A stretch of DNA of 64,000 nt, taken from NCBI GenBank assembly GCA_964385105.1, contig CAYLMU010000001.1:130252-194251 (forward strand), written 5' to 3'. Every line of letters begins with the position of its first letter. The first letter of the stretch is position 1. The notes under the pieces were generated by a model. The model made no database searches. It saw only the letters and a list, made by a program, of their open reading frames with translations, and was not told the origin of the DNA. This DNA is from an uncultured Candidatus Saccharibacteria bacterium. Its GTDB lineage: Bacteria; Patescibacteriota; WWE3; UBA101185; UBA10185. This document shows positions 140 through 62,741 of this stretch, in pieces. Made by a program: the position numbers and the translations under genes.

Positions 140-168
140 TTGACTAATATCCTATAGTATGTTATACT
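140..168 (+). promoter_or_regulatory. sigma70-like promoter TTGACT-N17-TATACT with CCTATAGT motif in spacer
   Basis: TTGACT at 140-145, a 17-nt spacer containing cctatagt (151-158), and TATACT at 163-168. The gene ATG at 213 is preceded by AGGAGG. Confidence 0.5.
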
Positions 169-212
169 AATACCATAAATCGGAATTAAGGCATATACTC
201 AGGAGGCCAAAA

Positions 213-554
213 ATGTCCCGCAACAGGAGCTTTTTGTATGGGCGTCTTGCTGACAATAACCCCCACTTGCATGTGGATGGCGTTCAAATCGTCAGCACCG
301 AAGTCATCACCCCCGCAGAACTGGCAGAGCGCTTCAACGGTCAGAACGTGTACATTGAGACCGGCAAAGAAGGCGACACTGGCAGGCAGTATCACGATCA
401 GGGAGTGACCGACGAACAGAAGCAACAGTTTCGCAATGATTGCCCTGGCGCTGTCTGGACTGGTCGCTTTTGGTGGATTCCGCTGGAGAATGGTGACCAC
501 GTCATCATCCCGACCGAGGACGGAAACTACACCATCATCACTGTCCAGATGTAA
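213..554 (+). CDS. hypothetical protein, GC-rich cargo gene (113 aa)
   Basis: AGGAGG RBS 7 nt upstream, intrinsic terminator downstream, ~55% GC versus AT-rich flanks. Antisense ORF 186..680 rejected. Confidence 0.6.
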   Translation: MSRNRSFLYGRLADNNPHLHVDGVQIVSTEVITPAELAERFNGQNVYIETGKEGDTGRQYHDQGVTDEQKQQFRNDCPGAVWTGRFWWIPLENGDHVIIPTEDGNYTIITVQM

Positions 555-675
555 GATCACCGATTTACAGAGACACAGCCTTAAGGTCATCAGACTAAAA
601 GGTAATTGGGGTGAAACCAATTTTAAATGTGAAAGCTTAAGATAATCATTTTTAATGGTTAATTTAAGACAAGTA

Positions 676-700
676 ACCACCTGTAAAAGGGTGGTTTTTT
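676..700 (+). terminator. intrinsic terminator (accacc-loop-ggtggt + T6)
   Basis: Hairpin aaccacctgtaaaagggtgg followed by a T-run directly after the 213..554 ORF. Confidence 0.6.
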
Positions 701-748
701 GTTTTTGTAGTACAATACTGTTGTATTCCCCTGCTCACAACTAAATAT

Positions 749-1297
749 ATGAAACCTGAAGATATAACCTTTTTAATTGTTAAAAGCTATGCTGTTGGAA
801 TATTCCATGCAGTGTTAAATCTGTGGTGGTTTTGGTTAGTATTTGGGTTGTTTATAGCAATAAAATATCACCTGATAAATACTCTTAGTGTTCATTCACT
901 TGAAGAACTATTTAATTACCTTTTAGTTAAAGTAAATCCCAAACTTAGTAACTATCAGCTACCTGAGGAGATAGTGTTTCCTAAAAGCTTTATATGGGCT
1001 TCAGATACAGTTTTTAAGTTTGGTGAGTATGGAAGCATAGAGTTTCAAGAGGGTGAAAATATTGGTAAGCAGATTTTTAAATACTTCACAGAAGCTAGGG
1101 GCAATTATGTGAAAGTTAGAGATATTTCTAAGAGGTTAAACACTTCTGATAAAGATATAAGGGCTAGAATTAAAATATTAAACAACAGATTAAGTTGTAT
1201 TAAAGGCATTGATAATGGCTTTGTGAAAATAAAACCAAGCGGTAGAGGTTCTTACAGATTATACATATCCCCACTTCTAAATAATCCCAAGAATTAA
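749..1297 (+). CDS. membrane-anchored winged-helix (OmpR/CadC-like C-terminal DNA-binding) protein
   Basis: N-terminal hydrophobic segment. C-terminal region ...DKDIRARIKILNNRL...GFVKIKPSGRGSYRL resembles OmpR-type wHTH. Confidence 0.4.
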   Translation: MKPEDITFLIVKSYAVGIFHAVLNLWWFWLVFGLFIAIKYHLINTLSVHSLEELFNYLLVKVNPKLSNYQLPEEIVFPKSFIWASDTVFKFGEYGSIEFQEGENIGKQIFKYFTEARGNYVKVRDISKRLNTSDKDIRARIKILNNRLSCIKGIDNGFVKIKPSGRGSYRLYISPLLNNPKN

Positions 1298-1498
1298 ACA
1301 TATTAAAGATTGCTATTAAACAGGTGTTAAACATTACGCTTGGTGCAGTATGTTATCTGCACAAGCTATACAGGATTTTAAAGACCTGTATTTCAAAAAA
1401 TACAAAATAACACTTTCAGATAATGAAGCAGAAACCTTATTTTTAAGGTTTTTAAACTTTTTCAAACTGATTTATAGACCAATTCCAAAGGGGGAAGC

Positions 1499-61020: not shown

Positions 61021-61039
61021 CGGAGGAATTATATCAGTT

Positions 61040-61381
61040 TTACGATATACCCTCACCATTATCTACGGGTACTTTTGGTATAACAAAAACAGGTTTACTG
61101 TCCAAATCCGTGCCTATTGATAAAAGCATGCCTTGCGATTCCTGCCCTGCCATTTTTTTAGGCTCTAGGTTTGTTAAAACTAAAGTTTGCATATTTTTAA
61201 AGTCTTCAGGGTTATACCACTTGGCCATTCCGGTTAAAATTGTTCTCATCTCCCCGCTTCCAATGTCTACTGTTAGTTTTATTAATTTATTTGAGTTTTC
61301 TACATTTTCGGCGGCAACAATCGTTCCAACCTTTATTTCTAGTTTTTCAAAATCGGAGTAGTTTATTGTTGGTTTTGGCAT
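61040..61381 (-). CDS. CsaA/EMAP-type tRNA-binding domain protein
   Basis: LEIKVGTIVAAENV...KLTVDIG OB-fold tRNA-binding pattern. Confidence 0.7.
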   Translation of the reverse strand: MPKPTINYSDFEKLEIKVGTIVAAENVENSNKLIKLTVDIGSGEMRTILTGMAKWYNPEDFKNMQTLVLTNLEPKKMAGQESQGMLLSIGTDLDSKPVFVIPKVPVDNGEGIS

Positions 61382-61399
61382 AGGGTGATTGTAGCATAA

Positions 61400-61669
61400 G
61401 TGGAATATGACTCATTTTTCTGCTATAAATACCTAGTGTCAAAAACTATCAGCAAACACGAAATAATCAAGAATCTGCGTGAGGAACTCAAAATCCTTCG
61501 TGAAGAACGTGATAAGATAACACTTGAAAAAGGATTAGTTGCACAAGACAATAAAGATTTGCGTGAAAATGCTGCATATTCGCAACTTGAGCAAAAGGAA
61601 CATGCTCTTACCTCAAGAATTCGTGGTGTAATAGAAGAAATTTATGAGTACTCAAGAAAAAACATTTAA
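61400..61669 (+). CDS. GreA N-terminal coiled-coil domain-only protein (89 aa)
   Basis: DLRENAAYSQLEQKEHALTSRIRGVIEEI matches the GreA N-terminal D-x-x-ENAEY motif region. No FKBP-like C-domain. Confidence 0.45.
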   Translation: MEYDSFFCYKYLVSKTISKHEIIKNLREELKILREERDKITLEKGLVAQDNKDLRENAAYSQLEQKEHALTSRIRGVIEEIYEYSRKNI

Positions 61670-62708
61670 AGAACAATTTGATAAGCTAGTTGTTTTACTA
61701 GAAGAGGATTCAAAAATACTAATTACCTCACACATGAATCCCGATCCCGATGCAGTAGCTTCAATGCTTGGGATGAAGCATTATTTAGATAATTACCACC
61801 AAAATTTTAAGTCAGATGTTTTGGTTACGGGAAACAAGGACGAACAATATGATTGGTTGCCCGATTTCGATAAAATTAACTGGAAAGAAGATATTGCCCC
61901 ATTCACAGCAGATTACAATGTTATTATTTTGGTAGATTGTCACTCCCGCGCTAGAGTATCCGAAACTCCTGAAATGATTGATTTAAATAAGCACCGCTTT
62001 ATTTGCATTGACCATCACCCCGAAATTACCGAAGATTTTGAGCTGGTATTTAGCGATTCTACTTATGCTGCTGCAGCACAACAAATTTCAAACATATTTT
62101 TTTCAAAAGAAGATTTAGCACACAAAAATATTGCAGAAACGTTACTTTACGGTATTTTAAGTGATACAGGAGGGTTGACCTTTGTTAATAAAGAAAAATC
62201 AAATGTTTTGGTTACGGTAAAAGAGATTATCGATGCTTCAGGTTGTGACCTACAGGTTGTTAAGTCAAAAATTGAATCGGTCAATAAAAAGGCATTAGAG
62301 CTTGTAAATGTTTTACTGTCAAATACCAAGTATGTAGAGCTAAGTAATGCGCCATCTTTGTCATACGCATATTTAGAGCGTGAGAATGTAAGCAGTTATG
62401 GCCAAGAGATAGTAAGTGACGCGTCGCACGTATATATGTTTTCTTATGTACGAAAGGTAAAAGGGTATCCTTGGGGGTTTGTTGTAACACCCCGTGATAA
62501 TTATTATAAAATATCGTTTAGGTCAAGCCCGGGAGCACCAAATGTTAAAAAAATTTGTAATGAATTTTTTGAAGGCGGTGGCCACGTGATGGCGGCAGGA
62601 GGTAAGTACATGCCTTCAGAAAATAATAAAAACATCTCAGCCGAAAAAGTTGCGCAAGAAATTATTAAATCTATAAGCAGCGCAAAAATTGAGATAAACC
62701 CCTTTTAG
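61644..62708 (+). CDS. DHH/DHHA1 phosphoesterase (NrnA-like)
   Basis: HMNPDPDAVAS, ICIDHH motifs, GGH in the DHHA1 domain. Confidence 0.75.
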   Translation: MSTQEKTFKEQFDKLVVLLEEDSKILITSHMNPDPDAVASMLGMKHYLDNYHQNFKSDVLVTGNKDEQYDWLPDFDKINWKEDIAPFTADYNVIILVDCHSRARVSETPEMIDLNKHRFICIDHHPEITEDFELVFSDSTYAAAAQQISNIFFSKEDLAHKNIAETLLYGILSDTGGLTFVNKEKSNVLVTVKEIIDASGCDLQVVKSKIESVNKKALELVNVLLSNTKYVELSNAPSLSYAYLERENVSSYGQEIVSDASHVYMFSYVRKVKGYPWGFVVTPRDNYYKISFRSSPGAPNVKKICNEFFEGGGHVMAAGGKYMPSENNKNISAEKVAQEIIKSISSAKIEINPF

Positions 62709-62712
62709 CCAC

Positions 62713-62741
62713 TTTACACAATCCTATAGTTTTGCTAAAAT
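62713..62741 (+). promoter_or_regulatory. sigma70-like promoter TTTACA-N17-TAAAAT with CCTATAGT in spacer; leaderless start at 62750
   Basis: Perfectly spaced hexamers. ATG 8 nt after the -10. Confidence 0.5.

Follow-up and report, generated by a model that had tools for sequence, protein, structure and literature searches.

The class I operators (OB) of KorB, from the IncP plasmid RK2, lie immediately upstream of the -35 element (about -39/-40) and repress near-consensus strong promoters; KorB also acts from other positions. The 8-bp word CCTATAGT/ACTATAGG described here (the box), which recurs in the window (the whole 64-kb stretch of DNA analysed, part of a Microgenomates/WWE3-like Patescibacteria genome), resembles OB as a global-regulator-type site at the upstream edge of -35 in near-consensus promoters. 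OB, however, is a perfect palindrome of 13 bp to which a ParB-family dimer binds, and it belongs to a plasmid, whereas the box is 8 bp long, asymmetric and chromosomal in Patescibacteria, and its putative binder is only presumed to repress.

Class II activator sites (CRP/FNR at -41.5, lambda cI at PRM, the 0A boxes of Spo0A) likewise abut or overlap the upstream edge of -35, a position that brings sigma region 4 or the alpha subunit within reach of the bound protein. The box shares this class II position near -41.5, overlapping the -35 region, with its centre about 3-6 bp upstream of the hexamer (approximately -38.5 to -41.5). Spo0A boxes are also short (7 bp) and asymmetric, activating near -40 and repressing elsewhere. 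Promoters that depend on class II activators normally have a poor -35, whereas box promoters have near-consensus -35 and -10 hexamers with 17-nt spacing; the dyads recognised by CRP/FNR span 16-22 bp, unlike an 8-bp asymmetric word without conserved flanks; and a tandem arrangement of the response-regulator kind is absent at most box sites.

The proximal subsite of UP elements, bound by the alpha C-terminal domain at about -46 to -38, is also found just upstream of -35 in strong promoters. UP elements are degenerate A/T tracts (-40 to -60) of fixed orientation, read through the minor groove and typical of rRNA/tRNA promoters. This assignment was rejected because the box has three G/C in eight bases, is all but invariant, is found in either orientation and also within spacers, and is missing from the tRNA promoters of the window (the regions upstream of tRNA-Pro and tRNA-Arg). 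At the AT-hook site of WhiB7 in Actinobacteria, a factor tethered to sigma region 4 reads a short motif directly upstream of -35, where most boxes lie; that motif is simply A/T-rich, however, and the factor is an actinobacterial Wbl protein that activates. We identified no Wbl protein or equivalent reading the box. The NrdR box, a 16-bp palindrome (acaCwAtATaTwGtgt) found as tandem pairs upstream of ribonucleotide reductase genes, was rejected in turn, since the core here is 6 bp rather than 10, the acaC/Gtgt arms are missing and the downstream genes are unrelated orphans.

Copies and enrichment in the window

An unbiased scan of the window placed CCTATAGT/ACTATAGG as the top over-represented 8-mer (P = 6e-8). 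It is enriched to 11 copies against 1.53 +/- 1.16 expected from dinucleotide shuffles, and 0 of 100 shuffles attained that number, which bears out the over-representation beyond chance that the initial annotation had proposed. The enrichment is restricted to intergenic DNA: non-coding sequence, 15% of the window, holds nine copies against 0.3-0.4 expected (P = 1e-9), and coding sequence holds two against about one, the chance level. A check for equal frequency inside and outside genes therefore came out unequal, and the same coding count led us to reject a genomic word of the DNA uptake sequence, Chi or KOPS type. Two other over-represented words of the window, GACCCTGA and AATTCCGG, were set aside as coding-sequence effects.

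The conserved unit is an essentially invariant word. One-mismatch variants show no enrichment in the window as a whole (56 against 40, the 56 including the 11 exact copies) or in its non-coding DNA (11 against 7.7), the sole enriched variant being CCTGTAGT (two against 0.2). Symmetric forms are scarce, with one copy of ACTATAGT and none of CCTATAGG. The suggestion of a dimeric regulator, drawn from the palindromic core, thus fails because the word that is conserved is asymmetric. The strand split of 9:2 tracks gene orientation. The copies, with one variant box, are as follows.

151..158, + strand: box CCTATAGT in the 17-nt spacer of TTGACT (140-145)/TATACT (163-168), a 10/12 promoter match; gene 213-554 (113 aa, Shine-Dalgarno GGAGG) downstream
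6225..6232, - strand: intergenic box of ambiguous role, ACTATAGG on the + strand with TATATT 1 nt further on; gene 6107 to 5826 has its promoter, TTGTCT (6177)-17-TAAAAT, about 48 nt downstream of the box
14578..14585, - strand: box, ACTATAGG on the minus strand, directly abutting -35 TTTACA (14577-14572), with a 17-nt spacer and -10 TATAAT (14554-14549), the best sigma-70 match in the window (11/12); gene 14386 to 13937 (149 aa) downstream of this predicted promoter
14629..14636, - strand: variant box ACTACAGG (CCTGTAGT on the + strand) abutting TTGACA (14628-14623); 51 bp upstream of the box at 14578 in like orientation, just past the terminator of the Bax1-I gene (14686-14665)
15514..15521, - strand: box, ACTATAGG on the minus strand, abutting -35 TTAACA (15513-15508), then 17 nt and -10 TAAAAT (15490-15485); 56 nt 3' of tRNA-Arg, ahead of a 43-aa ORF and the Bax1-I family gene 15277 to 14741
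24020..24027, - strand: box, ACTATAGG on the minus strand, abutting -35 TTGCAG (24019-24014), then 17 nt and -10 TATACT (23996-23991); between an intrinsic terminator (24083-24057) and gene 23948 to 23550 (132 aa)
38211..38218, + strand: box, ACTATAGG on the + strand, about 30 nt past the predicted start of a small unit with promoter TTGACA (38145)-17-TAACAT and a terminator at 38301-38320 plus T-run
44182..44189, + strand: copy within the coding sequence of gene 44103-44684 (minus strand), in keeping with what chance predicts for coding DNA
46348..46355, + strand: coding copy in gene 44703-46436 (minus strand) for a PMT-like protein, where it specifies T-I-G of the N-terminal membrane helix; the divergent gene 46484 lies about 130 nt downstream of it and a weak GTTACA-16-TAAAAT match beside it, and its function is doubtful
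54371..54378, - strand: box, ACTATAGG on the minus strand, in the 17-nt spacer of TTGCAC (54392-54387)/TATAAT (54369-54364), 1 nt from the -10; ahead of a 64-aa membrane ORF starting near 54327
58276..58283, + strand: box CCTATAGT in reverse orientation, its final T being the first base of -35 TTTACG (58283-58288), followed by 17 nt, -10 TAGAAT (58306-58311) and gene 58366-58758 (130 aa); overlaps the TAG stop of a weak ORF (57848-58282)
62723..62730, + strand: box CCTATAGT in the 17-nt spacer of TTTACA (62713-62718)/TAAAAT (62736-62741); acylphosphatase gene 62765-63004 downstream

All nine exact copies listed in the initial annotation exist, one of them at 14578 rather than 14568, and its variants at 14618 and 9995 belong at 14629 and 9996. 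It had described every copy as intergenic and none as coding, overlooking the copies at 44182 and 46348, both of which are coding. Its placement of 151 and 62723 within promoter spacers was correct, as was that of 24020 just upstream of a -35; 14578 and 14629, assigned to the spacers of two tandem promoters, lie in no spacer of a + strand promoter but adjoin the -35 elements of minus-strand promoters, so that the strand assignment fails.

Register against promoters and occurrence in relatives

The promoters considered here are all predictions, and loose sigma-70 matches occur at chance level in the A/T-rich DNA of the window. The box-associated pairs score 9-14 bits or 9-11/12 matches, with a 17-nt spacer in nearly all and -35 elements of the TTGACw/TTTACA type, and thus have the sequence features of predicted sigma-70-type (housekeeping) promoters; the spacers between their hexamers all differ. 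Four window copies directly abut a -35 (for example ACTATAGG followed at once by TTTACA-17-TATAAT), three lie in 17-nt spacers and one is about 30 nt into its unit. Measured against 400 permuted control words, 3 of the 11 copies abut a strong promoter where controls do so in 0.14% of cases (P = 5e-7), and 3 of the 11 lie in a spacer against 0.28% (P = 4e-6). Most boxes sit just upstream of -35 and outside the -35/-10 core, the overlap with the core or start that characterises a classical operator being seen at 151, 54371, 62723 and possibly 38211 (+30).

The register is fixed and extends beyond the window. Among 29 copies from the window, L081, L208, L210 and L017, none of them picked by the search pattern, the gap to a strong -35/-10 pair is exactly 0 for forward boxes in 7-8 of the 29 and between -1 and +2 for reverse boxes in 12 of the 29. 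An ORF with a Shine-Dalgarno sequence and ATG begins 60-125 nt past the box in almost every case, and paired boxes 48-51 bp apart occur. This constancy of register, common to relatives, is the main regularity that the initial annotation overlooked; the association of a non-random word with promoters, which it did propose, is supported by the positions against the hexamers, and an operator or a lineage-restricted promoter element is still the best account of the word. Only some promoters carry the box, most housekeeping genes of the window being without one. The genes that boxes would drive are small, mutually unrelated and mostly without Pfam matches; a search among them for a common domain or family found none, and they appear to be small, fast-evolving orphan genes.

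The box is conserved in relatives. In L081, a relative with 76% identity, ACTATAGG directly followed by a -35 is kept about 55 nt after tRNA-Arg and is orthologous to the box at 15514, although the spacer has otherwise diverged and the downstream gene differs from that of the window. A 1.1-Mb MAG (L208) carries 8 copies in 21 kb against 0.58 expected, a JGI contig (L210) carries 6 in 9.7 kb against 0.4, and WWE3 genomes also have the box. In strong promoter-plus-ORF units, a box or CCYATAGY variant stands upstream of -35 in 10/12 cases in L208 and 6/6 in L210 (together 16/18), 2/3 in L081 and 2/8 in the window, where three more of the eight units have a box in the spacer. Four control word families gave zero at this position. 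The variants of L208 and L210, CCCATAGT, CCTATAGC and GCTATAGG, are substituted at one common position. The very same word recurs in lineages with a ValRS identity of only 57-64%; boxes are entirely missing from close relatives whose Ldh is equally similar.

This specificity against control words holds further afield. In 80 more distant Patescibacteria loci, 6 of 23 box copies abut strong promoters, against 22 of 11,631 (0.19%) for 300 control words. A metagenome scan for the full architecture returned at least 120 hits, a total that is not evidence because control words are equally common in viral contigs, where the architecture is not enriched (28 hits for the box; 34, 2 and 13 for control words). 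The informative part of the scan is confined to multi-hit contigs, which include Ga0075570_106 (WWE3 GW2011_GWB1_41_6), L110/L114, L118 and L194. Nothing past the 8-mer is conserved in 108 unique metagenome examples. Neither the reference genomes scanned first with the hypothetical protein at 38424 nor an exact look-up of MltG gave a match, and we found nothing relevant in the literature on promoter motifs in Patescibacteria or Saccharibacteria.

Candidate readers of the box

On the sequence evidence, we give roughly an even chance to the box being the operator of a putative regulator that gates strong promoters at the upstream contact zone of RNA polymerase. A highly sequence-specific DNA-binding protein, presumably conserved across a scattered subset of Patescibacteria (Microgenomates/WWE3 lineages), would bind CCTATAGT where it meets the upstream contacts of the polymerase, mostly against -35 and, in the source genome, also in spacers. 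A trans-acting factor is favoured because it would fit the -35 edge, the spacer and the +30 position alike, which recognition intrinsic to the polymerase would not. Box promoters are already of near-consensus sigma-70 type, and the bound protein would gate them, blocking polymerase by occlusion in spacers and interfering with or holding sigma region 4 and the alpha C-terminal domain at the -35 edge. Alternatively, it may act at the -35 edge as a class-II-type activator and so be a dual regulator. Gating seems the more likely sign, given the near-consensus hexamers with 17-nt spacing, the spacer copies and the paired boxes; it has against it that, in model bacteria, a site lying wholly upstream of -35 typically belongs to an activator and not to a repressor. 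Our search of the window yielded no cognate protein, an OmpR-type response regulator being the one clear transcription factor there.

Transcription-factor sites are seldom as exact as this 8-mer, which has almost no degenerate variants, and a specific protein-protein contact hardly explains an asymmetric site used in both orientations at one place. The strong promoters of L208 and L210, almost all of them boxed, would also fit a basal promoter element.

That the polymerase holoenzyme itself reads the box, as a basal element defining a distinct class of strong promoters, we regard as possible but unlikely. It might be a -35 extension for sigma region 4, a proximal-UP-like subsite for the alpha C-terminal domain or the site of a polymerase-bound accessory subunit. 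The exact forward gap of 0 in every unbiased case and the 16/18 boxed units (close variants included) of L208 and L210 speak for such an element, as does the proximal UP subsite of E. coli, which lies close to the box centre at about -39.5 to -41.5; the identity of the word across diverged lineages suggests a conserved reader. An upstream contact of polymerase is insufficient, however, because of the three spacer copies of the window and the one about 30 nt past a predicted start. Both orientations are used, the reverse with 1-3 bp of slack, the tRNA promoters and most housekeeping genes of the window do without a box, and boxless close relatives would be odd for a property of the core enzyme. 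Somewhat less probable still is a second promoter class in which the invariant box, fused to -35 and read by the transcription machinery itself, serves cassettes of orphan genes. The reading may fall to sigma region 4 or the alpha C-terminal domain in modified form, or to a specificity subunit bound to the polymerase, and arrays of such rapidly evolving cassettes may accumulate beside tRNA genes.

We consider it improbable that an orphan or restriction-linked DNA methyltransferase targets the word and that the methylation state of the word tunes promoter use epigenetically. An exact, asymmetric word with almost no variants shows the specificity of a modification enzyme, and its frequency in coding DNA is neutral; nevertheless, methylation alone does not explain a single-base register against -35, so that a reader protein would still be required, and the same-position substitutions of CCCATAGT, CCTATAGC and GCTATAGG resemble binding-site drift rather than enzyme specificity. 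No enzyme of that kind was seen in the window, only a weak RrnaAD-like match in a 165-aa ORF that is itself box-driven.

Marginally less credible again is that the box forms the core of a recombination or cassette-junction site, with promoter-plus-ORF modules spreading by site-specific insertion beside tRNA genes. L210 is an array of 600-700-bp modules, each opening with a degenerate copy of the 3' end of tRNA-Arg, after which come two boxes, one distal and one proximal; tRNA-Arg has a box after it in the window, L081 and L017, as does tRNA-Pro in the window; a large serine recombinase gene adjoins tRNA-Ser at 2.8-4.6 kb of the window; and the cargo consists of orphan genes. Yet the window boxes have neither tRNA-end remnants, on which ground a tRNA-linked attachment site there was rejected, nor repeated flanks. 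No inverted recombinase-binding arms are present, nothing but the 8-mer is conserved in the 108 examples, and the coupling is tight to promoter hexamers rather than to module ends. A repeated element (MITE/REP) or mobile promoter was likewise dropped, the flanks of the window boxes being unrelated with none shared; the repeated modules of L210 are the exception.

A chance or compositional artefact, a misread -10 or a fragment of a T7-like promoter, which the chance-level sigma-70 matches of the window and the lack of enrichment in viral contigs might suggest, is effectively refuted by the shuffles and Markov models and by control words that never reproduce the register. TATAGT resembles a -10 hexamer, but has no consistent -35 at 16-18 nt upstream and in many cases no gene lies in that direction; a reading of CCCCATAG as sigma-32-like was similarly dropped, with no matching upstream -35. 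ACTATAGG is the start region of T7-type promoters, and the literature matches for the word were all T7 primers. Such promoters need about 23 conserved bases (-17 to +6), ACTATAGG supplying just the 3' portion, and the 15 bases upstream of ACTATAGG are unconserved both in the window copies and in the 108 unique metagenome examples.

Meaning for Patescibacteria

The control of transcription in CPR/Patescibacteria is almost unexplored: these bacteria are uncultured or hard to culture, with few recognisable regulators and many small orphan genes. The box points to a previously undescribed regulatory site that would control many such genes. Standing in front of them, it offers a means to predict a regulon from sequence alone, could serve as bait in the search for the cognate protein (phylogenetic profiling, DAP-seq or pull-down), and supplies the genetic tools now emerging in Patescibacteria with a portable promoter architecture that can be tested. 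Should it instead be read by polymerase or mark cassettes, the box would bear on how reduced genomes acquire and express new genes; and if it does define a second promoter class, it would give ultra-small symbiotic bacteria a built-in platform for expressing new genes.

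An exact, asymmetric word concentrated in non-coding DNA

The 8-mer CCTATAGT, or its reverse complement ACTATAGG (the box, each copy being named by its start coordinate), has 11 copies in the window, where dinucleotide-preserving shuffles predict 1.53 +/- 1.16; none of 100 shuffles reached that number. In an unbiased scan under a third-order Markov model, it ranked first of all 8-mers in the window (11 versus 1.19, P = 6e-8). The over-representation proposed in the initial annotation is thus borne out by a shuffle control. The accompanying list of positions was nearly right, with one copy, 14568, and two variants, 14618 and 9995, corrected here to 14578, 14629 and 9996, and had omitted the exact copies at 44182 and 46348. 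Both of these are coding, the latter encoding the T-I-G of an N-terminal membrane helix, so that the claim of a wholly intergenic motif survives as a strong excess: a conservative non-coding mask, comprising 15% of the window and used with a self-trained gene map, holds nine copies versus 0.3-0.4 expected (P = 1e-9), and the coding part two versus about one. The preference for intergenic DNA is thus genuine.

Words differing from the box by one mismatch show no excess, either across the whole window (56 versus 40, the 56 including the 11 exact copies) or in its non-coding DNA (11 versus 7.7), where CCTGTAGT is the sole enriched variant (2 versus 0.2). The box word is asymmetric; its symmetric forms ACTATAGT and CCTATAGG occur once and not at all in the window. 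The next-ranked over-represented 8-mers in the window, GACCCTGA (seven copies) and AATTCCGG (ten), found for example at 3359, 33007, 18633 and 20239, look like codon or dipeptide effects unrelated to the box because nearly all copies lie in coding sequence; AATTCCGG is also the top 8-mer in the related locus L081.

Register with predicted promoters and the genes downstream

Each copy was compared with a simple sigma-70 weight-matrix model and with a separate promoter scan, and all promoters are predicted.

Box copies in the window, with -35 and -10 hexamers (17, spacer in nt) and downstream unit
14578, minus strand: ACTATAGG directly against TTTACA-17-TATAAT, the best sigma-70 match in the window (11/12); 149-aa gene
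14629, variant box: ACTACAGG directly against TTGACA, 51 bp upstream of 14578; same downstream unit (149-aa gene)
15514, minus strand: ACTATAGG directly against TTAACA-17-TAAAAT; 43-aa ORF and Bax1-I family gene
24020, minus strand: ACTATAGG directly against TTGCAG-17-TATACT; 132-aa gene
58276, reverse orientation: the final T doubles as base 1 of TTTACG-17-TAGAAT; 130-aa gene
151: in the 17-nt spacer of TTGACT/TATACT; 113-aa gene
62723: in the 17-nt spacer of TTTACA/TAAAAT; acylphosphatase gene
54371, minus strand: in the 17-nt spacer of TTGCAC/TATAAT; 64-aa membrane ORF
38211: within a small unit that has a promoter and intrinsic terminator of its own, about 30 nt from the predicted start; candidate small RNA
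6225: role ambiguous, a modest promoter lying about 48 nt downstream; gene 6107->5826
44182 and 46348: in coding sequence; no downstream unit

Loose sigma-70 matches in this A/T-rich window are at chance level (232 found versus about 218 expected), and we therefore relied on control words. The 400 permuted words used have 707 copies in the window, of which 0.14% abut a strong promoter and 0.28% lie in its spacer; for the box the corresponding counts are three of 11 (P = 5e-7) and three of 11 (P = 4e-6). When the unbiased copies from the window and the loci L081, L208, L210 and L017 are considered together (n = 29), 7-8 are forward (ACTATAGG before the -35, gap exactly 0); the reverse ones (CCTATAGT before the -35, gap -1 to +2) number 12. 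The 8-mer, which is invariant and asymmetric, is register-locked, in both orientations, to near-consensus predicted -35/-10 pairs. Several boxes directly follow intrinsic terminators: those immediately upstream of boxes 14629 and 24020 (14665-14686 and 24057-24083, both minus strand) place them at junctions between the terminator of one gene and the promoter of a co-directional one.

An ATG-initiated ORF preceded by a Shine-Dalgarno sequence nearly always begins 60-125 nt past the box. The small products, of 43-199 aa, are mutually unrelated by BLASTP, and almost all are without Pfam or NCBIfam matches, the exceptions being a Bax1-I family protein, an acylphosphatase, a weak PadR-like membrane protein and a zinc ribbon. 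One box-driven gene (L208, 4737-5318), in which a weak PadR-like winged-helix N-terminus is fused to membrane helices, could encode an autoregulated DNA-binding protein. The sole clear transcription factor found in the window is an OmpR-type response regulator, paired with a histidine kinase (16590-18057, minus strand) and syntenic in L081-L083, and it showed no link to the box. Box 38211 lies in a candidate independent unit of about 145 nt (38145-38328, plus strand), between tRNA-Pro and gene 38424, with promoter TTGACA-17-TAACAT, an intrinsic terminator (38301-38320) with T-run and a fold z of -2.4; it matched nothing in Rfam and is possibly a small RNA.

Recurrence and patchiness among relatives

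Relatives of the valyl-tRNA synthetase (ValRS) place the organism in the Microgenomates/WWE3/Levybacteria group of Patescibacteria, at a best identity of 64%, and most window proteins have no curated family. Public data include the source genome, through a 468,751-nt NCBI contig that carries a 100%-identical protein and through a Logan fragment, L084. ValRS itself (32368-34647, 759 aa) covers positions 2-698 of an 860-position equivalog model and appears to lack the usual C-terminal extension. For a GT4 protein, the sole relative closer than 55% was P0002 (76% identity; loci L081-L083), with a G+C content of 43% versus about 36% for the window. Both intergenic copies in L081 abut promoters, ACTATAGG lying directly against TTGACC-17-TATAAT and TTGACT-17-TATAAT. 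The first, about 55 nt after tRNA-Arg, occupies the position orthologous to window box 15514; when the two are aligned, the tRNA is conserved, the spacer has diverged and ACTATAGGTT-AC forms an island of identity, and the gene downstream is a different one. The box is thus conserved at an orthologous site, and it recurs across lineages.

Further relatives were anchored on a conserved Ldh-family gene (58846-59826, 77-80% identity). Exact copies are dense in L208 (NCBI GCA_049322215.1, 1.11-Mb contig; eight in 21 kb versus 0.58 expected) and L210 (JGI Ga0114923_10004168; six in 9.7 kb versus 0.4) and absent from L205-207, L209, L288 and L289. Most copies in L208 and L210 are reverse, CCTATAGT being followed at a gap of -1 to +2 by TTTACA/TTGACx-17-TATAAT. 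Where a strong promoter, Shine-Dalgarno sequence and ORF occur without the exact box, a variant usually takes its place (CCCATAGT, CCTATAGC, GCTATAGG or CTTATAG). Scoring strong promoter-plus-ORF units for a relaxed box (CCYATAGY / RCTATAGG) ahead of the -35, we found it at 10/12 in L208, 6/6 in L210, 2/3 in L081 and 2/8 in the window, where three more carry a box in the spacer; four mirrored or permuted control word families gave no such units in these four sequences.

L210 (1-9709, JGI 3300009788 Ga0114923_10004168) is itself an array of modules of about 600-700 bp extending from a genuine tRNA-Arg(tct), each comprising a degenerate copy of the tRNA 3' end (..GGGCGCGCCA) and a CCYATAGCC box, the distal one, separated by about 41 nt from a proximal box, then a consensus promoter, small ORF and terminator. 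This looks like cassette accretion or tandem duplication at the tRNA 3' end. In the window, the 3' end of a large serine recombinase gene (2813-4570, plus strand) overlaps tRNA-Ser (4508-4598, minus strand), with tRNA-Val nearby (5117-5193); 2813-4598 may mark the boundary of an integrated element.

Across 80 ValRS-anchored Patescibacteria loci (1.4 Mb), the box shows no overall excess (23 copies versus about 39 per average control word); 6/23 copies abut a strong promoter versus 22/11,631 for 300 control words, these six deriving from two WWE3 genomes, a Levybacteria genome and one other. When metagenomes were scanned for the complete box-promoter architecture, there were at least 120 matches, with 108 unique among the matches listed. 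We rejected this number as evidence because the control-word architecture is as common in viral contigs (28 versus 34, 2 and 13 for three control words). More informative, among the matches listed, are contigs with several independent matches, whose extra box copies likewise adjoin promoters; one, Ga0075570_106, is WWE3 GW2011_GWB1_41_6, as identified by a 100%-identical ORF. The 108 unique matches listed share no conservation beyond the 8-mer. The box is patchy and recurrent in the Microgenomates/WWE3 radiation, dense in some genomes and absent from equally close ones, as read from some 64 kb of source sequence and from stretches of 10-21 kb in relatives, from which genome-wide numbers are extrapolations.

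A putative gatekeeper of strong promoters

We infer that a sequence-specific protein binds the box, since a trans-acting factor is the only single explanation covering the -35-edge, spacer and +30 copies. At the spacer boxes, at least, repression would be expected because a protein within a 17-nt spacer must compete with polymerase. The -35 edge is the position of class II activators, but these promoters are already near-consensus with ideal spacing, features seldom found where a promoter depends on an activator. A steric role, rather than a specific contact, is also the better fit to a box that works in either orientation and with a slack of 1-3 bp, and boxes paired 48-51 bp apart (14629/14578 in the window; the L210 modules) are typical of cooperative repression. 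For these reasons, we favour a bound protein that acts as gatekeeper to promoters already strong in themselves, and that may have dual activity.

The chief alternative is that the transcription machinery reads the box directly, as an extended -35 or a sequence-specific UP-like element, to which the zero gap of the forward register and the near-universal presence of the box at strong promoters of L208 and L210 lend weight. Such reading is harder to reconcile with boxes inside spacers, with both orientations being in use, with close relatives that lack the box, and with the window's tRNA promoters, which have none, so that only some promoters, not every strong one, are marked. Methylation-based control of these promoters, a recombination core and an artefact are each less likely.

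UP elements, CRP/FNR-type dyads, T7-type promoters, NrdR boxes, uptake or Chi-like words and repeated elements are each defined by features that the box does not show. Literature searches returned only T7-primer noise for the box word and nothing on Patescibacteria promoters. Functionally, the proposed box-binding gatekeeper would resemble KorB, which acts on strong promoters from the class I operators of RK2. The box behaves like a site of a known kind, an operator or promoter-proximal element; what appears undescribed is this box in particular, together with the fixed way in which it is fused to the -35 in either orientation, the lineages over which it is distributed and its association with the promoters of orphan genes.
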